Positions 92-11,663 of a DNA stretch of 64,000 nucleotides are shown piece by piece (within the stretch, counting starts at the first letter, position 1; each line of letters starts with the position of its first letter). The notes below the pieces were generated by a model. The model ran no database searches, had not been told where the DNA came from, and saw only the letters and a program-made list of their open reading frames with translations. A program made the translations under genes and the position numbers. Source of the DNA: a bacterium (GTDB lineage: Bacteria > UBA8248); contig OZ241996.1 in the NCBI GenBank assembly GCA_965204535.1, positions 352,001 through 416,000 on the forward strand, given 5' to 3'.

Positions 92-1354
92 ATGGCGGAA
101 CCTGTACGCGGCGAAATCGTCGCCATCGGCACCGAGATGCTCCTCGGCGACCTCATCGACACCAACAGCGCCTTCATCGCAGACCAGCTCAAGTCGATCG
201 GCGTCAACATGTATTTCAAGACCACCGTCGGCGACAATCTCGACAGGATCGCGGGCGTCATCAAACAGGCCCACGAGCGCTCCCAGGTGGTCATCACCAC
301 GGGCGGGCTCGGCCCCACGGTGGACGACCTGACGCGCGAGGCCTGCGCCAAGGTGATGGGCGTCGAACTCGAGTTCCGCCAGGACCTGTACGACTACATC
401 AGCGCCTATTTCAGCCGCCGCGGTTTCCACATGAGCGACAACAACAAAAAGCAGGCCTACATTCCCGCCGGGGCCACGCCCATCGAGAACCCGCGCGGAA
501 CGGCGCCTTGCTTCATGTGCGAGGACGAGCGGGGGGTCATCATCGTGAGCCCGGGCGTGCCGCACGAGATGCGCTACATCATCACACAGTGCGCGGTGCC
601 CATCCTGCAGGAGAAATTTGATTTGGGAGAGGTTATCCGAACAAAAGTTCTCAAGACCTGCGGCCTCGGCGAATCGCGCGTCGACGAGATGATATCGGAG
701 TTGTTCCGAGAATCGGTGAACCCGAGTATCGGCGTGCTCGCCCACCCCGGCCAGGTGGACGTGCGCATCACCGCGCGCGCAAAGGATATCGAAGAGGCGA
801 ACAACATGATTGCGGGTCTCGAGGTCAAGGTGCGCGAGATCCTGGGTTCCGCCGTCTACGCCACCGGGAACGCGACGCTCGAGGAGACGCTGGCGCGCGT
901 GCTTGCCCAGAGCGGCAAGACCATCGCGATTGTGGAGTCGAACACCGGCGGGGCCTTGATCCAGCGGCTGAACGCCTGGCCCGAGCGCGTGCAGTTCTTA
1001 AAGCGCGGCGTCGTCGGATTGCACGCGGAAGAGCTGGCGCGCATGTTCGGGGTGGATGAGGGAGAAGACCCGGAGAGTTTCGCAAAAGCGCTCGCGAGGC
1101 GAATCCGCGAGGAGTCGGACGCAGACTTAGGGTTAGCCGTCTTCGGCCCCAATCCGCCCGAGAACATCGAGCCGGAAAACTCCCGCCGCGCGCCTGCGCT
1201 GGGCGACACCCACATGGCGCTCGACACGGGGAGCGACGCCTTCACCTTCACGGCGAGCTTCGGGGGAAACGAGCAGTTCGTGCAGTCGCGCGCGCCCATC
1301 TACGGGATGGAGCTCGTCCGCCGCGCGGTGCTGGGCCTCGACCCGCTGACGTGA
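92..1354 (+). CDS. cinA: CinA-like competence/damage-inducible protein (molybdopterin-binding-like N-domain plus degenerate PncC-like C-domain)
   Basis: EIVAIGTEMLLG..IDTNS, TVGDN, TTGGLGPTVDDLT, N-x-RGTAP, PGVPHEM motifs; C-domain IVESNTGG. Confidence 0.85.
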   Translation: MAEPVRGEIVAIGTEMLLGDLIDTNSAFIADQLKSIGVNMYFKTTVGDNLDRIAGVIKQAHERSQVVITTGGLGPTVDDLTREACAKVMGVELEFRQDLYDYISAYFSRRGFHMSDNNKKQAYIPAGATPIENPRGTAPCFMCEDERGVIIVSPGVPHEMRYIITQCAVPILQEKFDLGEVIRTKVLKTCGLGESRVDEMISELFRESVNPSIGVLAHPGQVDVRITARAKDIEEANNMIAGLEVKVREILGSAVYATGNATLEETLARVLAQSGKTIAIVESNTGGALIQRLNAWPERVQFLKRGVVGLHAEELARMFGVDEGEDPESFAKALARRIREESDADLGLAVFGPNPPENIEPENSRRAPALGDTHMALDTGSDAFTFTASFGGNEQFVQSRAPIYGMELVRRAVLGLDPLT

Positions 1355-2438: not shown

Positions 2439-2467
2439 TTGACAGGATCGGCAAGAATATAGATACT
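2439..2467 (+). promoter_or_regulatory. Candidate sigma70 promoter for the UGSC operon
   Basis: TTGACA-N17-GATACT in an AT-rich intergenic stretch; ATCTTAT repeats follow downstream. Confidence 0.5.
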
Positions 2468-2572
2468 CTCAATCATCTTATTATTCCATAACGATCCGGC
2501 ATCTTATCATCTTATCGTGACTTTTGACCGCGCCTGGTGCGATTCCGCTTGGTTTCAGGGGAGGAGTGTTTT

Positions 2573-3130
2573 ATGAGGGAGACTCTGGTGATTCTCGACC
2601 CCTCGGGAATACCCCCTCCGATGGAGAAGGTGCGGCCGGCCGCGCGCCCCGCTCTTCTCGAGGGGGTCCGCTTGGGTCTTCTCGATAACACGAAACCAAA
2701 CTCCGACAAGCTGCTCCGCCGGCTGGAAGAGCGCTTGAGCGGGAAATACCCCATCGGCTCGTTCACGCACTACCGCAAGGGCGGCAGCGCGCTCCCCCTG
2801 GAGGAGGACCTGATCGATCGGATGTCTGCGGAGTGCGACTTCGTGGTGAACGCGGTGCCCGACTGAGGGTCCTGCACGCCGTGGAGTATCCACGACGCGA
2901 TCGAGCTCGAACAGCGCGGGCTCCCCACGCTCACCGTCATCACGGACATGTTCGAGGCCTTCGGGCGCAAGAAGGCGCGGGCCCTGGGTTTTGCGGGTCT
3001 CCCCATCGTCTCGATCCCCCATCCCATCACCGGAATACCGCTCGATACGGTGCACGCCCACGCGGACGGGATACTCGAAAGCGTGGCGGAGTCCCTGACG
3101 CAGACGCCGCCCCCGGTAGACGAAGGATGA
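2573..3130 (+). CDS. UGSC-family selenoprotein (185 aa; UGA at 2864-2866 read as Sec)
   Basis: GGAGGAG RBS; frame continues past GAC-TGA-GGG-TCC-TGC (D-U-G-S-C) as TPWSIHDAIELEQRGLPTLTVITDMF to a stop overlapping the next ATG. Confidence 0.85.
2880..2894 (+). promoter_or_regulatory. Putative bacterial SECIS hairpin
   Basis: CGTGGA-GTA-TCCACG stem-loop with G in the loop, about 19 nt after the UGA. Confidence 0.6.
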
Positions 3131-4182
3131 AGCTGGCATCCACGCGCCACGAGGTGGCCGACTCCCCTCTGGAGTTGCTCGAGTACGTGATGGAACGCGG
3201 CTGGGGGGACGGGCTGCCCGTCATCCCGCCGACTGAGGAGCGGGTGGCGGCCATGGTGGAGGCATCGGGGCGGCCGCCCGAGGAATCCCGCGGTCGCATC
3301 CCCCACCTCTTCGGCGACGCCACGATCGAGAAGATCGCCGTCAACGCCGCCATGGCGGGCTGTAAGCCCGAATACATGCCGGTGCTCGTCACCGCCGTCG
3401 ACGCCATCTTCGACCCCATTTATAACCTGCCGGGCGTTCAGGGGACGACGAACTGCATCGCGCAGCTCATCGTCGTCCACGGCCCCGCCCGGGGTGCGCT
3501 GGGGATCAACTGCAAGGAAAACCTCTTCGGCCAGGGCTGGCGCGCCAACGCCACCATCGGCAGGGCGTTCCGGTTCATCCTTCAGAACATCGGGGGCGCC
3601 AAGCCGGGCGATACCGATCGGAGCACCTTCGGCCACCAGGGCAAGTTCTCGAGTTGCATCGGCGAGAACGAAGAGGCGAGCCCGTGGCCGCCGCTCCACG
3701 TCGAGCGCGATCTCGAGCGCTCGGACAGCGCCGTGACGGTCATCGCCGTCGATCCGCACATCATGGTCAACGACGCGGCCAGCACGGACGGCGAGGGCGT
3801 GCTCCAGTCCATCGCTTCGTCGATGATGCAGGCGGGGAGCAACAACGCGCTCTTCGGCGGGGAGATGGTGGTCGTCCTCGGCCCCGAACACGTCGACATG
3901 CTCGTGCGCGACGGCTGGGACCCGACGCGGATCCGGGCCTTTCTCTACGAGCGGGGAAGGGTGCCGACGTTTCTTTTTGCGCCGGCGAACCTGGAGCGCG
4001 CGCGGGGACGCCGGGACGACCTCATGGCCCAGGAAGACCTCGAGAGCGTTCCCGTCGTAGACGATGAGGAGAGCATCTGCCTGTTCGTGGCGGGCGGACT
4101 CGGGAAGCACAGCCTCGTCATCCCGACTTTCGGAAACACGCACAGCGTCACGCGCAGGATTGATTTTTCCTTCACCGACTGA
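3127..4182 (+). CDS. Conserved uncharacterised partner of UGSC selenoproteins (351 aa)
   Basis: GWGDGLPVIPPTEERV, ATIEKIAVNAAMAGCKPEYMPV, RANATIGRA, ENEEASPW motifs; ATGA overlap with the UGSC gene. Confidence 0.75.
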   Translation: MKLASTRHEVADSPLELLEYVMERGWGDGLPVIPPTEERVAAMVEASGRPPEESRGRIPHLFGDATIEKIAVNAAMAGCKPEYMPVLVTAVDAIFDPIYNLPGVQGTTNCIAQLIVVHGPARGALGINCKENLFGQGWRANATIGRAFRFILQNIGGAKPGDTDRSTFGHQGKFSSCIGENEEASPWPPLHVERDLERSDSAVTVIAVDPHIMVNDAASTDGEGVLQSIASSMMQAGSNNALFGGEMVVVLGPEHVDMLVRDGWDPTRIRAFLYERGRVPTFLFAPANLERARGRRDDLMAQEDLESVPVVDDEESICLFVAGGLGKHSLVIPTFGNTHSVTRRIDFSFTD

Positions 4183-4338: not shown

Positions 4339-5955
4339 ATGGAACGACGCAAGGTCCGATTCGGTAGCGCCGCTATCTTCTTGGTTCTCGCCGCGGTGCT
4401 CGTACTCACTCACATCCCGGGGTCAGCATGGGCCCAGAAGCGGGGCGGCACGCTGGTGGTCGGCCTGGAAGCCGATCCGGGGCACTTCAACCTGATCGTC
4501 AAACCGGGCACGACGGTCCAGGTGCCGGCCGTGAACATCTACAACAAGCTGATCACGCTCGATTTCGACCTCAACCCGAAGCCGGAACTGGCGAAATCCT
4601 GGGAGGTCAAGGACGGCGGGAAGACGCTCGTCTTCCACCTCCGCAAGGGCGTGAAGTTCCACGACGGCAAGGAGATGACGAGCGAGGACGTGAAGTTCTC
4701 GCTCGAGAAGTGCCTGCCGTACAACCCCCGCTCGCGCGTGTTCTGGAAGCCGGTGGCGGAGAAGGTGGAAGCGCCGGACAAGTACACCATCGTCGTCCGC
4801 CTCAAGAAGCCTTTCGCCCCCTTGCTCACCGTGATGGGGGTGATCTTCGGCGGCCCCGCCATCTACCCCAAGCACCTGTGGAAGGATCACGTGGGCAGCC
4901 GCAAGGCCTTCCTGAACGCTCCGTATAGCAAGAAGCCCGTCGGAACCGGGCCCTTCATGCTCAAGGAATACAAGAAGGGCAGCCACGTACGGCTCGTGCG
5001 CAACCCGAATTACTGGAACGCGCCCAAGCCCTACGCGGATGAGTTGGTCATCCGGTTCGTCTCGGACGCCAACACCCGCCTCATCGCCCTGGAGAAAGGC
5101 GAGATCGACTATCTGCGCGCGGCCCTCATCCCCTGGGATCAGGCCGCCCGTCTCAAGAAGAACCCGAAACTCGTCGTCCTCGACAAGGGGGGAGAAGCGA
5201 CGGGGCAGGTCGAGTTCATGCTCCTGAACATGCGGCGGCCGATCACCGGCAACGTGAAGGTTCGCCAGGCGATCGCGTATGCGCTGGACAAGAACCAGAT
5301 CAGCCAGCTGGCGACCGGGGGCACCGCGAAGGTGGCGGACGGCATCATGCACTCGGCCATGAAGTGGGCGCACAAGGGCAGCTTCGCCCAGTACAAGCAA
5401 GACCTGAAGATGGCGAACAGGCTGCTCGACGAGGCGGGCTACCCGATGAAGGGAGGCAAGCGCTTCAGCCTCACGGTGACCTGGGCCAAGGGCCGAGGCT
5501 TCGAGGGACTGGCGGCCGAGGTGATCAAACAGCAGCTCAAGAAAGTCGGCATCGACATCAAGATCGAGTCCTTCGACCGGGCGGCCACGCTGAAGAAGGT
5601 CTACATCAATCATGATTTCGACATCATGATGCAGTTCTTCACCACCGGGCCCGACCCCAAGATCAGCGTGACGCGGGTCTACGACAGGAACAACATCGGC
5701 TCGGCGAACTTCAACAACGCGCCGTCCTACATCAACGTCGGCGTTCAGCGTCTCCTCGACGCCGAATGGCAGATCCCCGACGTGAAGAAGCGGGGCGCCG
5801 CGTGGCGTCAGATCGTCGATATGGTCGCGGCCGACGCGCCCGTCATCCCGCTGTTCGAGACACCCTTCGTCCACACGCATTCGGCGAAATGGGCGGATGT
5901 GGTCACGCGTCCCTACTGCGCGTATTGCACTCGGGAGGACGCTTACCAGAAGTAG
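4339..5955 (+). CDS. ABC transporter substrate-binding protein, family 5 (Dpp/Opp)
   Basis: Signal peptide; PELAKSW, LRKGVKFHDG, PVGTGPF, VRQAIAYALD. Confidence 0.92.
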   Translation: MERRKVRFGSAAIFLVLAAVLVLTHIPGSAWAQKRGGTLVVGLEADPGHFNLIVKPGTTVQVPAVNIYNKLITLDFDLNPKPELAKSWEVKDGGKTLVFHLRKGVKFHDGKEMTSEDVKFSLEKCLPYNPRSRVFWKPVAEKVEAPDKYTIVVRLKKPFAPLLTVMGVIFGGPAIYPKHLWKDHVGSRKAFLNAPYSKKPVGTGPFMLKEYKKGSHVRLVRNPNYWNAPKPYADELVIRFVSDANTRLIALEKGEIDYLRAALIPWDQAARLKKNPKLVVLDKGGEATGQVEFMLLNMRRPITGNVKVRQAIAYALDKNQISQLATGGTAKVADGIMHSAMKWAHKGSFAQYKQDLKMANRLLDEAGYPMKGGKRFSLTVTWAKGRGFEGLAAEVIKQQLKKVGIDIKIESFDRAATLKKVYINHDFDIMMQFFTTGPDPKISVTRVYDRNNIGSANFNNAPSYINVGVQRLLDAEWQIPDVKKRGAAWRQIVDMVAADAPVIPLFETPFVHTHSAKWADVVTRPYCAYCTREDAYQK

Positions 5956-6046: not shown

Positions 6047-7030
6047 ATGGCAGGCGATTATCCGCTTCTGCGTTACAGCGTAAGGCGTATCCTACAGGCC
6101 GTCCCTCTCGTTTTCTGGGTCATCATCATCAACTTCACCATCATCCATCTCGCTCCGGGCGATCCGGCCATTTACCTGGCCAGCGTCACCGAGGCCACGC
6201 CGGAGGCCTACGCGGAACTGCGCAAGGAGTTCGGCCTGGACAAGCCGCTTTACGTCCAGATGGGGATTTACCTCTGGAAGCTGCTTCATCTGGACCTGGG
6301 CTATTCCACCTGGCACAACTCCCCCGTCCTCGGCGTCATCATCGATCGCCTGCCCGCGACCATGCTCCTGATGGCGACGGCCTTCTCCATCGCCAGCCTC
6401 ATGGGGGTGGTTCTCGGCGTCATCGCATCGCGCTATTCCTATTCGGTGGGCGACCACCTGGCGACCCTGGCTTCGCTCGCCGGCTATTCGATGCCCATCT
6501 TCTGGCTGGGCCAGCTTCTCATACTCTTTTTCGCCCTCTATCTGGACTGGCTGCCGAGCCAGGGGATGTACTCGATGCGCGGGGTGGAGCCCGGCTGGCC
6601 TGCGGTCCTCGACGTCCTGAAGCACCTGCTCCTTCCCGCGATCACCTACGCCACCTACCACATGACCCTCGTGTTCCGGATCACGCGGGGCAAGATGCAG
6701 GAGACGCTCGCGCAAGACTTCATCCTGACCGCGAAATCCAAGGGGTTGAACGAACGCCGCGTGCTCTACCGGCACGCCCTGCGCAATGCGCTGCTCCCGG
6801 TGGTCACCGTGATCGGCATCAATTTCGCCTACGTCATGGCGGGTTCGGTGTTCACCGAGACCGTGTTCGGGTGGCCGGGCATGGGCCGGCTGATCTTCGA
6901 ATCCATCACCGCGCGGGACTACCCGATGATTCTGGGGATCTTCCTCGTCGTCTCGATGATGATCATGCTGGCGAACCTCATCACGGACATTCTCTACGCC
7001 ATGATCGACCCGCGCGTGGCGTATAACTAG
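6047..7030 (+). CDS. Peptide/nickel ABC permease (DppB-like)
   Basis: LAPGDPA, GLDKPLYVQ, TAKSKGL..RHALRNAL, ETVFGWPGMG, RDYP. Confidence 0.92.
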   Translation: MAGDYPLLRYSVRRILQAVPLVFWVIIINFTIIHLAPGDPAIYLASVTEATPEAYAELRKEFGLDKPLYVQMGIYLWKLLHLDLGYSTWHNSPVLGVIIDRLPATMLLMATAFSIASLMGVVLGVIASRYSYSVGDHLATLASLAGYSMPIFWLGQLLILFFALYLDWLPSQGMYSMRGVEPGWPAVLDVLKHLLLPAITYATYHMTLVFRITRGKMQETLAQDFILTAKSKGLNERRVLYRHALRNALLPVVTVIGINFAYVMAGSVFTETVFGWPGMGRLIFESITARDYPMILGIFLVVSMMIMLANLITDILYAMIDPRVAYN

Positions 7031-7042
7031 GAACTCAGGCTC

Positions 7043-7942
7043 GTGACGACATCGGCGGATACAATCGAGCATCGAAACTCGAACAGAGGGCTGCAGATAA
7101 GGGCCGTCTGGGGCGCGTTCAGCCAGAACCGCGCGGTGCCCATCGCAGGGTCCATTCTTCTGGTGCTGATTCTGCTCGTTTTGTTCGCGCCCCTTCTGGC
7201 GCCCTATGACCCTTACGCGCTGGGTTCGGGATCGCGGCTGGGCGGGCATAGCTTCCGCAACATCATGGGCGCCGACAACCTCGGGCGCGACGTCTTCAGC
7301 CGCATCCTGTGGGGCGGGCGGGTCTCGATATTCGTCGGTTTCTCGGCGGCCTTCGCCACGACGTTCCTGGGCCTTCTGGTGGGCACGATCTCGGGCTACC
7401 TGGGCGGTTGGGTGGACGATATCCTGATGCGCCTCACCGAGACCTTCATGGTGATCCCGCGCTTCTTCCTCGCCCTTATTATCGTGGCCTTCTTCGGGGC
7501 GAGCATCTGGAACATCATCTTCGCCATCTCCATTTTGACGTGGCCGGTGACGGCCCGCCTCGTCCGCTCGGAATTCCTCACCCTGCGCACGCGGCAGTTC
7601 GTGGACGCCGCGCACGTGATCGGCACGAAGCGCTCGACGATCATCTTTCGCGAGATTCTGCCGAACGCCATCGGGGTCGTGGTCGTGAACGCCTCGCTGC
7701 TGACCGCGCAGGCGATGCTGCTCGAAGCGGGCTTGAGTTACCTGGGTCTGGGAGACCCCAGCCTGGTGACTTGGGGGCGGATGCTGTACGAGGCCCAGCC
7801 CTTTCTGCGACAGGCGTGGTGGATGGCCGTGTATCCCGGTCTGGGCATCTTTCTCTCCGTCCTGACGCTCAATCTGCTGGGAGACGGCCTGAACGACGTG
7901 CTCAATCCCCGCTCCTCCGAGATTCACCGGACCGGCCTATGA
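7043..7942 (+). CDS. Peptide/nickel ABC permease (DppC-like)
   Basis: GADNLGRDVFSRILWGGRVS, ARLVRSE, EILPN, LSYLGLG. Confidence 0.92.
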   Translation: MTTSADTIEHRNSNRGLQIRAVWGAFSQNRAVPIAGSILLVLILLVLFAPLLAPYDPYALGSGSRLGGHSFRNIMGADNLGRDVFSRILWGGRVSIFVGFSAAFATTFLGLLVGTISGYLGGWVDDILMRLTETFMVIPRFFLALIIVAFFGASIWNIIFAISILTWPVTARLVRSEFLTLRTRQFVDAAHVIGTKRSTIIFREILPNAIGVVVVNASLLTAQAMLLEAGLSYLGLGDPSLVTWGRMLYEAQPFLRQAWWMAVYPGLGIFLSVLTLNLLGDGLNDVLNPRSSEIHRTGL

Positions 7943-8922
7943 ACAAGACCGCCGAAAACGGAAACGGCCTCCTGCGGGTCTCAGACCTCAGGACCTACCT
8001 CGACGTGCCCTCCGGCGTGATCAAGGCCGTCGACGGCGTCTCGCTGGAGGTGAACCGCAAAGAAGCCGTTGCGCTGGTCGGGGAGTCGGGTTCGGGGAAA
8101 TCCATGACGGCGCTCACCATCATCCGGCTCCAGCCGGTCGTGGCCCGCATCCTCTCGGGCGAGATACTTCTGAACGACGTGGATCTCCTCACCTTGGACA
8201 CGGCGAGCATGTGCGACCTCCGCGGGACGGAGATCGCCATGGTCTTTCAGGACCCCATGACATATCTGAACCCCGTCATGCGGGCAGGGGCCCAGGTGGC
8301 GGAAGTGGTGCTGGAGCACCAGGAGGTCTCGAAGGGGGAGGCCCGTTCGCAGGTGCTCGACGCGTTCGAGCGCGTCGGCATCCCGTCCCCCCAACGGGTG
8401 TATGACAGCTACCCCCATCAGTTGAGCGGCGGCATGCGCCAGCGGGTGCTCATCGCCATGGCCATCTCGTGCCGCCCCTCCCTGCTCATCGCCGATGAGC
8501 CCACCACGGCGCTCGACGTGACCATCCAGGCGCAGATCATGGACCTGCTCGCCCACCTCCGCGAGGAACTCCAGAACGCCCTGTTCCTGATCACCCACGA
8601 TATCGGCCTCGTGGCGGAGCATTGCGACCGTATCTACATCATGTACGCGGGCCAGATTGTGGAGCACGCCGACACCTTCACCCTGTTCGCCGAACCGAAA
8701 CATCCCTACACGGAGGGCCTCCTGCGTTCGACGCTCAGCCCCGACAAGCGGGTGGAGGTATTCGAAACCATCGAGGGGCAGGTGCCGAACCCGACGGACA
8801 TGCCGTCGGGCTGCCGCTTCCATCCGCGTTGCCCCCACGTCAAGGACATCTGCCGCGAGGAGTCGCCGCCATCTCTCGATTTGGGGGAGGGACGGATGGT
8901 GGCTTGCTGGCTTTATGAGTGA
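7939..8922 (+). CDS. Peptide ABC ATP-binding protein (DppD-like)
   Basis: [39 protein letters not shown]; ATG at 7939 overlaps the previous stop. Confidence 0.92.
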
Positions 8923-9937
8923 GTCCGCCGCGATGAACCAGGCACTCCTGCAAGTGCAAAGGCTGACGAAGTATTTTCCGGTCGACGGGGGGTGGCTCCG
9001 GCCTCCCCGCCACGTGCACGCCGTGGACGACATCAGCTTCTCGCTCAGCGCCGGCGAATCGTTCGCCCTCGTGGGTGAGAGCGGCTGCGGGAAAACGACG
9101 ACGGCCCGCCTGCTGGCGAAGCTGGAAAAACCCGACGATGGGAGCATCCTCTTCGACGAGAAAGAGGTCGCGGAACTGAGCGGGCCCGCCCTCAAGCAGT
9201 ACAACCGCGACGTGCAGATGATCTTTCAGGACCCCTTCGAATCCCTGAACCCCAGGCGCACCGTGCGGGCCATCCTGCGCCAGCCCCTCCTCAATCATGA
9301 CGCGGCCGAGAAAGGGAAGATCGACGAGACCGTCGTCGGGCTCCTGAACCAGGTGGGCATGGAACCGGGCGAAATCTTCATGGACCGCTACCCCCACCAG
9401 CTCAGCGGCGGCCAGCGCCAGCGCATCGGCATCGCTCGCGCGCTCACGCTGAAGCCCCGGCTGGTGATCGCAGACGAGCCGGTCTCCTCGCTCGACATCT
9501 CCATCCGCGCCCAGATACTGAACCTCCTGAAAGCGCTTCAGGCGCAGCACGATCTATCTTATCTCTTCATCACGCACGACCTGGGAGTCGTGCGCTCGGT
9601 CTGCGACAGGGTGGGGGTCATGTACCTGGGCGAGATCGTGGAGCTTGCGGCGGTGGAGTCGCTCTTCACGACCCCCCTGCACCCCTACACGCAGGCGCTG
9701 CTCTCGGCCACGCCGGTGGCGGACCCGGTGAAGGCCAGAAAGCGGCGGCGCATCATCCTCGAGGGAGAGGTTCCCTCCGCCCTCGACCCGCCGACAGGGT
9801 GCCGCTTCCATACGCGATGTCCCTACAGCGAGAAGCGTTGCGTGGAAGAGAAGCCGGTGCTTCGGGAACTCCACCCCGGCCATACGGTGGCCTGTCATTT
9901 CGCGGGCGACGTCGGCGTCGACGCCGCGGCCGATTGA
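8915..9937 (+). CDS. Peptide ABC ATP-binding protein (DppF-like)
   Basis: [36 protein letters not shown]. Confidence 0.92.
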   Translation: MSESAAMNQALLQVQRLTKYFPVDGGWLRPPRHVHAVDDISFSLSAGESFALVGESGCGKTTTARLLAKLEKPDDGSILFDEKEVAELSGPALKQYNRDVQMIFQDPFESLNPRRTVRAILRQPLLNHDAAEKGKIDETVVGLLNQVGMEPGEIFMDRYPHQLSGGQRQRIGIARALTLKPRLVIADEPVSSLDISIRAQILNLLKALQAQHDLSYLFITHDLGVVRSVCDRVGVMYLGEIVELAAVESLFTTPLHPYTQALLSATPVADPVKARKRRRIILEGEVPSALDPPTGCRFHTRCPYSEKRCVEEKPVLRELHPGHTVACHFAGDVGVDAAAD

Positions 9938-10147: not shown

Positions 10148-11663
10148 GGGGCTGTTGAAAAACCCCTGGTTTTGTGATCGTATGGATGTATCCCCCCTCG
10201 CCCGAGATGGGAGATTCCCCGATGTTGGACCGCAAGAGGCGCGGGCAGATGGAATTGTTCGTGGCCGGTTCGCTGGAGCAGTTGATTCCCGAAGATTACA
10301 TATTGTTCCGGGTGAACCGCGTACTGGATTTGAGCTGGCTGCGCGAGGAGGTGGCGGAGTGCTATTGCGCGGACAACGGTCGACCGGGGATCGACCCGGA
10401 AGTGGTGGTGCGGTTGATGCTGGCGGGTCTTCTGCTGGGCCACGTTCACGACCGGCATCTGCTTCGCGAGGCGCAGGTGAACCTGGCGATCCGGTGGTTC
10501 ATCGGGTACAGGCTGGACGAGGAGTTGCCGGATCATTCGAGCCTGACGCGTATCCGTCAGCGGTGGGGGGAGGCGCGATTCAAGGAGATATTTCGGCGCA
10601 CGGTTCAGTCTTGCGTGGAGGCGAAGGTGGCGAAGGGAGAAGTGGTTCACATGGACGCGTCTTTGATACGCGCGGACGTGAGCTGGGAGAGTCTGGCGGA
10701 GCGCCACGCGGAGAAGGTGGTGCGGGAGAACGACTCGGAGGATGAGACGGGGAAGAAGGGCGGTGGCGGGGGTTCGGGTCCGGTGAGCCGAACGGACCCC
10801 GACGCGCGCCTGGCGCGCAAGAGCGCTCGGGCGGGGTTCGAGCCGAGCTACAAGCACCACGCGGTGGTGGACGACGAGCGGGGCGTTGTCCTCGACGTAG
10901 AGGTGACGGCGGGGACGTTGAACGAGCGGGAGATGATGGAGCCGCAGTTGGATGCGGTTTGCGAGCTCACGGGTCGCGCGCCCGCGGTGGTGACGGCGGA
11001 TTCGGGCTATGCGTACTCGAAGGTGTACGGCGCATTGGAGCGGCGTGGCGTCGCCGCGCTGATACCGGCGAAGAAGGAGCCTTCCCAGAGCCGTGTTCCG
11101 CTGCAGTTGTTCCGCTACGACGAGCGGCGCAAGGTGGTGAAGTGTCCGGGCGGCAAGACGCTGCGTCCCCGGAAGGAGACGGAGCGGGGGCGCTACTATG
11201 GTTCGAGGACGCGCGATTGCGCGGGCTGCGCGCTGAGGTCGGATTGTCTGCCCAAGTCGCACACGAGCAGGACGGTGCTGATTCCGCACGAGTATCCGGC
11301 GCTGTTGCGCGCGCGCCGTCGCCACGCGCGCCGGGGGGAGGAGGAGGGCCGGCTGTGGCGCCGCCACATGTCGCGTTCGGAGGGCTACCACGGCGAAGCG
11401 AAGAGTCGGCACGGACTGGGGCGGGCGGTGCGCCGGGGCCTTGCGAACATGAGGATCCAGGCCTACCTGACGGCGACTGCGGTGAACCTCAAGCGGCTCG
11501 CCGCCGCTGTTGCGGCGGATATATTCGCTCTGTGGAGGGCCTGCGCCGCCCGGAGACGCCGTCTGCGCGTTCCTCGCGGCCTCACGCGCCGATTGGGCTT
11601 CCTATCCCAAGCCGCGTGAGCCGCCATACCTCCCGCTTCAAAACGGGGTTTTTCAACAGCCCC
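10148..11663 (+). mobile_element. IS1182-family insertion sequence (1516 bp)
   Basis: Perfect 19-bp terminal IRs GGGGCTGTTGAAAAACCCC (10148-10166 and 11645-11663); TTGA target duplication at 10144-10147 and 11664-11667. Confidence 0.93.
10222..11619 (+). CDS. IS1182-family DDE transposase
   Basis: GRPGIDPE, NLAIRWFIG, LPDHSSLTRIR, HMDASLIRA, SRTDPDA, TADSGY, EAKSRHGL, AVNLKRL. Confidence 0.92.
   Translation: MLDRKRRGQMELFVAGSLEQLIPEDYILFRVNRVLDLSWLREEVAECYCADNGRPGIDPEVVVRLMLAGLLLGHVHDRHLLREAQVNLAIRWFIGYRLDEELPDHSSLTRIRQRWGEARFKEIFRRTVQSCVEAKVAKGEVVHMDASLIRADVSWESLAERHAEKVVRENDSEDETGKKGGGGGSGPVSRTDPDARLARKSARAGFEPSYKHHAVVDDERGVVLDVEVTAGTLNEREMMEPQLDAVCELTGRAPAVVTADSGYAYSKVYGALERRGVAALIPAKKEPSQSRVPLQLFRYDERRKVVKCPGGKTLRPRKETERGRYYGSRTRDCAGCALRSDCLPKSHTSRTVLIPHEYPALLRARRRHARRGEEEGRLWRRHMSRSEGYHGEAKSRHGLGRAVRRGLANMRIQAYLTATAVNLKRLAAAVAADIFALWRACAARRRRLRVPRGLTRRLGFLSQAA

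Follow-up and report, generated by a model that had tools for sequence, protein, structure and literature searches.

Gene Organization of the Locus

The window, that is, the whole 64,000-nucleotide stretch of DNA analysed here, carries a gene of the UGSC selenoprotein family that is directly followed by a gene for an unnamed protein, hereafter called the partner, and by the genes of an ABC importer (Table 1). The preliminary description had joined two open reading frames (2537-2866 and 2948-3130) into one gene, and it was right to do so: the translation of 2537-3130 is a single frame with one internal stop (...NAVPD-stop-GSCTPWSIHDAIELEQRGLPTLTV...), the sole internal TGA being that of Table 1. 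The ATG at 2573 is likely the start codon, judging from the sequence, and around the predicted selenocysteine (Sec) the read-through protein reads NAVPD-U-GSCTPWSIHDAIELEQRGLPT, with the motif D-U-G-S-C. The overlap of the read-through stop with the next ATG, which had also been noticed, is indeed present (ATGA; final TGA at 3128-3130, partner ATG at 3127). The partner gene that begins in this overlap was absent from that description and is the main point of the present analysis. Two promoter-type sites were found in the region versus 1.6 expected by chance; the site listed lies 105 nt 5′ of the ATG, a position that fits.

Table 1. Positions in the window of the genes and signals discussed in the text.
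Feature	Position	Strand	Details or evidence
UGSC-family selenoprotein gene	2573..3130	+	185 aa, Sec98, Cys101; PF24696, NF041046, model pLDDT 96
In-frame TGA, predicted selenocysteine	2864..2866	+	read-through frame, paralogues, Cys homologues
Ribosome-binding site GGAGGAG	2560..2566	+	sequence
Sigma-70-like promoter candidate, TTGACA-17-GATACT	2439..2467	+	10/12 matches; weak
Bacterial SECIS hairpin	2880..2894	+	6-bp stem, GUA loop; pairing and loop G conserved in 58 Sec genes
Unnamed 351-aa partner ("Unknown_1")	3127..4182	+	DGLP, QxTT, RANATIGR motifs; start overlaps UGSC stop
Family-5 solute-binding protein of ABC importer	4339..5955	+	PF00496; 156 nt after partner; possibly same operon
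Transposase-like gene	10174-11619	+	between ABC importer and M20 peptidase; near-identical copies in L002, L007, L010
CinA-family gene	92-1354	+	profile match

On the minus strand, two small genes at 1788-2257, divergent from the UGSC gene, presumably encode a pair resembling the HicA/HicB toxin-antitoxin system. We take the importer to be of the dipeptide type and to continue at 6047..9937 (plus strand) with two permeases (6047-7030 and 7043-7942) and two ATPases (from about 7939 and about 8915), assignments that we presume from familiar motifs. A family-5 ABC importer downstream of the partner is also found in the two closest loci; on its 3′ side the window holds the transposase-like gene, then an M20 peptidase and an amidase.

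The UGSC Family and Its Reading Frame

The UGSC family was found computationally (Zhang and Gladyshev; PMC1976440, PMC2398784) and also appears in the available text of PMC9312934 and PMC13188914; in the available text of these four sources it is abundant in aquatic metagenomes and termed thioredoxin (Trx)-like. In the accessible part of PMC2398784 it holds fifth place by number among the 51 selenoprotein families of the GOS table, with 255 sequences, and is the most frequent selenoprotein family in non-marine samples. A 2026 review still describes it, in its available text, as uncharacterised and Trx-like (PMC13188914), in keeping with the earlier statement that UGSC is a predicted family without established function (PMC1976440, PMC2398784, PMC9312934, PMC13188914). 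The main text of BSepDB does not contain the term "UGSC".

The window gene, with its UGSC motif and SECIS, belongs to this family, as had been proposed: over the whole model, the joined protein passes the cut-offs of both PF24696 (174.5 bits, cut-off 25) and NF041046 (144.5 bits, cut-off 125). The gene halves match successive parts of the NF041046 profile (2-68 and 70-147) and score only 45.4 and 78.1 bits; since neither half passes that cut-off alone and the joined protein does, the continuity of the frame goes beyond chance. The word "hidden" in the preliminary description overstated the novelty of the gene, curated Pfam and NCBIfam models of the family being at hand. Taken alone, the window gene is unexceptional within a known family, and a UGSC/Unknown_1 fusion was already published in 2008.

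Predicted Selenocysteine Insertion at the In-Frame UGA

The genome contains a tRNA-Sec gene (selC), together with selA, selB and selD, each over its family cut-off; its selD itself carries a TGA. The Sec machinery for which the preliminary description had advised a search is thus complete, and the Cys homologues that it had likewise proposed to look for are plentiful: among 1367 related proteins (E <= 0.001), Cys occupies the UGA column in 144 of the 150 representatives listed, 103 of the 150 having a CGSC motif. All eight UGSC genes of the genome hold one TGA each, as do 150 of 150 matches listed in a search of the phylum (89 further matches exist), and a contig that spans the whole stretch lists no difference at the codon, this contig possibly being the source of the same DNA. 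Because of these paralogues, phylum matches and covering contig, the TGA is not an assembly slip. In the UGSC-bearing partner loci described below, the Sec position is TGA in 61 of 68 and Cys in 7 of 68.

A hairpin with a 6-bp stem and a GTA loop, 14-28 nt 3′ of the TGA, had been pointed out, and it is found there (CGTGGA 2880-2885, loop GTA 2886-2888, TCCACG 2889-2894). The bacterial SECIS rules given in the available text of PMC13188914 comprise a loop of 3-9 nt with G in one of its first two places, a stem of 4-16 bp, a distance of 16-37 nt from the UGA and an MFE <= -7.5; the window hairpin lies within all of them (3-nt GUA loop, 6 bp, loop 19 nt from the codon, -10.6 to -13.7 kcal/mol). 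This fit, together with conservation, upholds the SECIS-like character ascribed to it. A stem of at least six pairs with a loop G occurs in 86 of 86 Sec genes, in one of seven Cys genes and at 12% of 6000 random TGA sites. Because one paralogue contributes 28 close orthologues to the 86, the comparison was also made for the 58 genes left without loci L011-L040: five core pairs are kept in 57-58 of them, the loop begins with G in 58/58, and one stem pair alternates between G-C (35) and C-G (23). Three of the stem positions are paired in none of the seven Cys genes. Sec genes thus retain the hairpin, whereas it is lost from Cys genes; part of the stem conservation may come from the protein, as the stem overlaps conserved codons. 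The folding energy of the 44-nt stretch is not significant (z = 0.00, with 89 of 200 shuffles folding equally well), and because this energy is ordinary and 12% of random TGA sites give such a stem, the case for the SECIS rests on its conservation.

Insertion of Sec at this UGA is, on the sequence evidence, nearly certain. That the TGA is instead a true stop or a sequencing error, leaving two small proteins or a pseudogene, would agree with the unremarkable hairpin energy and with the split products recorded by gene callers; it is extremely improbable in view of the joined protein that passes NF041046, the TGA in every paralogue and listed phylum match, the Cys homologues and a stem kept in Sec genes and broken in Cys genes. 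A word-index search with the read-through UGSC protein gave no match, most likely because Sec genes are stored there as halves. RNA runs contained only 5-8% of the words; the contigs compared, from four of 12 runs, are mostly relatives less than 95% identical and are therefore uninformative on transcription of this copy and on habitat.

The Partner and Its Linkage to UGSC

The window partner corresponds to Unknown_1, shown fused to UGSC in Fig. S1A of PMC2398784, by way of its AVNxxMAGCxPEYMP segment, as far as the accessible part of that source goes. The window copy matches no Pfam or NCBIfam model, four stray weak hits being seen among 96 members, and 6087 relatives were found among 7994 candidates scored. 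Only two cysteines are conserved, C79 in 85/96 and C177 in 90/96 sequences. The window partner departs from the consensus at several conserved His/Asn sites (N109, H118, I212, A217), which is in keeping with paralogue-specific substrates as far as sequence can suggest. The genome holds 15 partner copies versus eight UGSC genes, one copy being fused behind a UGSC domain, and in the genus partners outnumber UGSC about two to one.

Linkage was counted in the best 80 of 593 partner loci, drawn from 11 of the 64 parts of the collection and including one partner (L042) 96% identical to that of the window. UGSC is present in 68 of the 80, in 66 cases within 700 nt on the same strand. The 12 loci that lack it comprise ten from Poribacteria, one short contig and one redoxin fusion, and all five genomes of such loci that were tested have UGSC elsewhere. 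Both families co-occur in the same 43 of 51 phylum genomes, which are kin and not independent. For each of the eight UGSC genes of the genome a partner lies adjacent or no more than about 2.7 kb away, one of the eight being fused, and seven partner genes there have no UGSC as immediate neighbour. Pairing of UGSC with the partner is thus near-obligate. Fusion points the same way, since the partner is fused in 23 of the 150 UGSC representatives listed; among 88 long partner proteins, many of them close kin, 23 end in a thioredoxin-reductase (TrxR) domain, with CxxC in 23/23. A redoxin-partner fusion occurs in L117, whose genome also keeps UGSC. In the available text of the UGSC literature the Unknown_1 fusion is treated as occasional, whereas the association seen here is near-obligate, with 8 UGSC and 15 partner copies in the expanded pair. 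We also would like to point out an array of four tandem partner paralogues (L003, G000:C2:2311655-2315837) that lies about 2.7 kb upstream of one UGSC gene.

Neighbouring genes are mixed. Counts in 91 regions, made with a crude ORF caller and including many regions from kin, gave CoA-transferases in 14, TrxB-like proteins in 14 (none among 11 own-genome regions), amidases in 13 and TPP enzymes in 12; across these regions, with 24 representatives scanned, no consistent pathway emerged and no substrate was indicated.

Predicted Structures and Complex

The UGSC model (pLDDT 96) consists of five strands and five helices that alternate (strand-helix x5), with Sec just before helix 3. Its structure matches are receiver, periplasmic-binding, flavodoxin-like and Rossmann-like domains, none of which stands out (best Z 11.0, rmsd 3.0, 138 aligned), and thioredoxin is absent among the top 50 listed. 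The fold is predicted to be doubly wound and, judging from the matches listed, is probably not that of thioredoxin, in contrast to the Trx-like grouping in the available text of PMC2398784 and PMC13188914. A sequence search of solved structures gave no match under E 0.01, and an ESM Atlas search gave unnamed or UGSC-tagged clusters only. The second Cys of the UxxC motif is Ser in 11 of the 150 representatives listed and in one own-genome paralogue.

The partner model (pLDDT 96) has no clear structure match. The best among 48,161 chains reached Z 5.0 (rmsd 3.1, 79 aligned), and the matching rows lie mostly in residues 135-339. Such a Z is no proof of a new fold, and the comparison hardly covers the N-terminal part. 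A sequence search of solved structures found nothing under E 0.01, and no internal repeat was detected at four splits (probability <0.5%). A weak, wide fold likeness to the alpha subunit of class I (Fe-S) fumarate hydratase is predicted (Foldseek E 1e-4; Z 4.5, rmsd 5.2, 187 aligned); with TM-scores of 0.23-0.28 and 8-10% identity, it says nothing on function.

The complex was folded for the natural Cys pair of a Variovorax locus (L120), a homologue pair of the window copy. It scored 0.84, versus 0.00 for the best of three controls; in calibration, 116 of 157 solved complexes and 2 of 215 mismatched pairs attain this mark, counts that hold only approximately when own alignments are used. The runs share at least 77% of contacts, and the partner pLDDT is at least 85. 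The predicted interface includes UGSC Cys102-Ser104, that is, the Sec position, and partner N104-T112; in window numbering, it joins the N-terminal D-P arm and C-G-S loop of UGSC to partner residues N100-T108 and 150-165. Conservation of the partner is not higher in the interface columns (0.60) than elsewhere (0.63), and neither C79 nor C177 is among the confident interface residues, unlisted residues being uncertain. The model supports a predicted binding of UGSC to the partner at the catalytic loop.

Relation to GrdB and PrdB

The preliminary description had likened the UxxC segment of the window protein to the selenoprotein B subunits GrdB and PrdB. This stands in so far as a remote homology, with Sec in register, extends over some 90 columns; it does not stand as membership of the GrdB/PrdB family, because the query alone matches no GrdB/PrdB model. 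Four true family members of the same genome served for comparison. HHalign aligned UGSC 86-175 to the GrdB/PrdB Sec region with 92.2%, and with 32 sequences the value rose to 95.2% (E 2.7e-8, score 58.5, 90 columns; best of 30 block-shuffled controls 36.3). TIGR01917 is matched at E <= 0.01, though only weakly, by 30 of 127 UGSC members (best E 2.6e-5), the window protein not being among them, and the latter matches none of PF07355, TIGR01918 and TIGR04483 at E <= 0.1. A whole-genome search with the UGSC profile placed GrdB as the fourth non-UGSC hit (E 1.5), and the reverse search placed UGSC copies second and fourth (E 0.12 and 1.6), all below significance. Among solved structures, a sequence search with the PrdB profile returned no relative of GrdB/PrdB under E 0.01.

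Sec is in register with that of GrdB/GrdF/GrdH (glycine/sarcosine/betaine reductase selenoprotein B) and of PrdB (D-proline reductase), and the motifs LE-x-x-G-[IVL]-[PA]-T-V and [HY]-P are common to both groups, in an aligned stretch that opens with the helix preceding Sec and closes with the last helix. In both, a small Sec subunit is paired with a larger one. The N-terminal half of UGSC, in contrast, is unaligned, so that only the Sec-bearing half is covered, and the pyruvoyl proprotein GrdE/PrdA found with GrdB/PrdB was seen at none of the UGSC loci. The partner was considered as such a proprotein and rejected, since 0 of 96 partner sequences match PF09338 and HHalign to the GrdE of the genome gives 0.3%. 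As the partner is unrelated to GrdE/PrdA, the known route of substrate activation is missing. UGSC thus likely descends, as its sequence suggests, from the same Sec module as GrdB/PrdB, and is neither GrdB nor PrdB. In the available text of PMC10838667, a GrdB-type Sec attacks a polarised carbon-heteroatom bond to form a selenoether, and GrdB-type variants without pyruvoyl and without CxxC are reported.

The genome also has a cluster of the glycine/sarcosine-reductase type (G000:C2:69900-76200) with a GrdB-type selenoprotein, a GrdE-type proprotein and GrdA with a TGA, as well as a gene that is presumably GrdC. Its only PF09338 gene is at C2:73129, and the single GrdE and GrdA sit with the true GrdB on C2. 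Three PrdB-like selenoproteins below the TIGR04483 cut-off (L122-L124; C2:2666022, C2:2200642, C2:1608364) have no PrdA-type gene nearby, and similar genes exist in 23 of 26 phylum genomes.

Proposed Function

We consider it somewhat probable that UGSC and its partner form a two-subunit selenol reductase fed by thioredoxin. The GUA-loop hairpin would be recognised by SelB, which would place Sec98 where helix 3 of the doubly wound domain begins; both the N-terminal arm and the loop bearing Sec would dock on the partner beside its conserved N-x-x-G-x-Q-x-T-T loop, as in the predicted complex. By analogy with GrdB/PrdB, we infer a catalysis in which the partner would bind and polarise a small organic substrate, and the selenolate would attack it and break a bond to a heteroatom. 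Cys101 would resolve the adduct to a selenenylsulfide, and the electron path would run through the thioredoxin/thioredoxin-reductase system, which would re-reduce it with NADPH. The partner paralogues would set the substrate, in the case of the window copy likely a solute imported by the downstream ABC importer; the context of importer, M20 peptidase and amidase hints weakly at an imported amino-acid or amide derivative. Carbon-heteroatom cleavage as the specific reaction, suggested by the same analogy, is possible and rather doubtful. Against a two-subunit reductase speak the Ser in place of the second Cys in some members, the lack of TrxB-like neighbours among the own-genome regions, the missing GrdE/PrdA route of substrate activation, the remoteness of the GrdB/PrdB kinship, the average conservation of the partner interface columns and the seven partner genes without an adjacent UGSC.

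A wider proposal, which we offer as tentative, would see UGSC and its partner as an undescribed and widespread third branch of the selenoprotein-B reductases. It would combine the GrdB/PrdB Sec module with a subunit without close solved fold that replaces the pyruvoyl proprotein; fed by thioredoxin reductase, its paralogues would form a toolkit for the reductive cleavage of dissolved organics in aquatic and soil bacteria.

The chemistry could instead belong to the partner, with UGSC as a dedicated electron donor, similar to thioredoxin or GrdA, that re-reduces or activates its catalytic thiol. The two well-conserved cysteines of the partner, the redoxin or TrxR domains that certain organisms have fused to it and its roughly twofold excess over UGSC in the genus would suit such a donor, which we nevertheless judge unlikely: neither cysteine is among the confident interface residues (with unlisted residues uncertain), the kinship of UGSC is with the substrate-attacking GrdB/PrdB module, and the genome with the redoxin fusion keeps UGSC too. 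The likeness of the partner to the fumarate hydratase alpha subunit, the widest that its model has, would rather point to a lyase, transferase or hydratase-like activity without redox chemistry, or to handling of sulfur, selenium or metal clusters, the UxxC motif serving as covalent carrier or ligand. A NifU-like domain fused to UGSC in 3 of the 150 representatives listed, one partner named as rhodanese-fused and the CoA-transferases in 14 of the 91 regions agree with this, but the low TM-scores, a Z under the chance range of the tool, the presence of only two conserved cysteines in the partner and TrxR fusions that point to electron input make it quite improbable.

The literature assumption of a stand-alone antioxidant oxidoreductase of thioredoxin fold, to which the neighbouring gene would be incidental, draws on the UxxC motif and on the placement of UGSC with Trx-like proteins in the available text of PMC2398784 and PMC13188914. 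The predicted five-strand, five-helix doubly wound domain, with no thioredoxin in its top 50 matches, and the linkage, fusion and predicted binding of the partner make it very improbable.

Implications and Divergent Family Members

The literature search brought to light no earlier record of near-obligate pairing, of a doubly wound fold, of kinship with GrdB/PrdB or of TrxR fusions; a 2025 study of selenoprotein neighbourhoods by Haft and Tolstoy may bear on their novelty. A defined partner, a predicted Sec-loop interface and an electron source, along with homologues that naturally carry only Cys or are fused, make the function of UGSC assayable. Gene callers cut UGSC genes at the UGA, and the family and its fusions are consequently under-counted.

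Several family members have unusual architectures. P0176, P0252 and P0253 are Cys-UGSC proteins in which the fused NifU-like domain is C-terminal and carries CxxC, two of the three matching TIGR02000. In P0301, P0305, L117:5236-7086 and L080, the domain that precedes the partner is either an amidohydrolase or a CxxC-bearing redoxin, the latter being followed by a PGC[GA]S motif. A CG[IL]C motif marks the divergent UGSC-partner fusions P0315-P0359; these come from Bacteroidales where named, and one of them is labelled T9SS-sorted and is therefore possibly exported.
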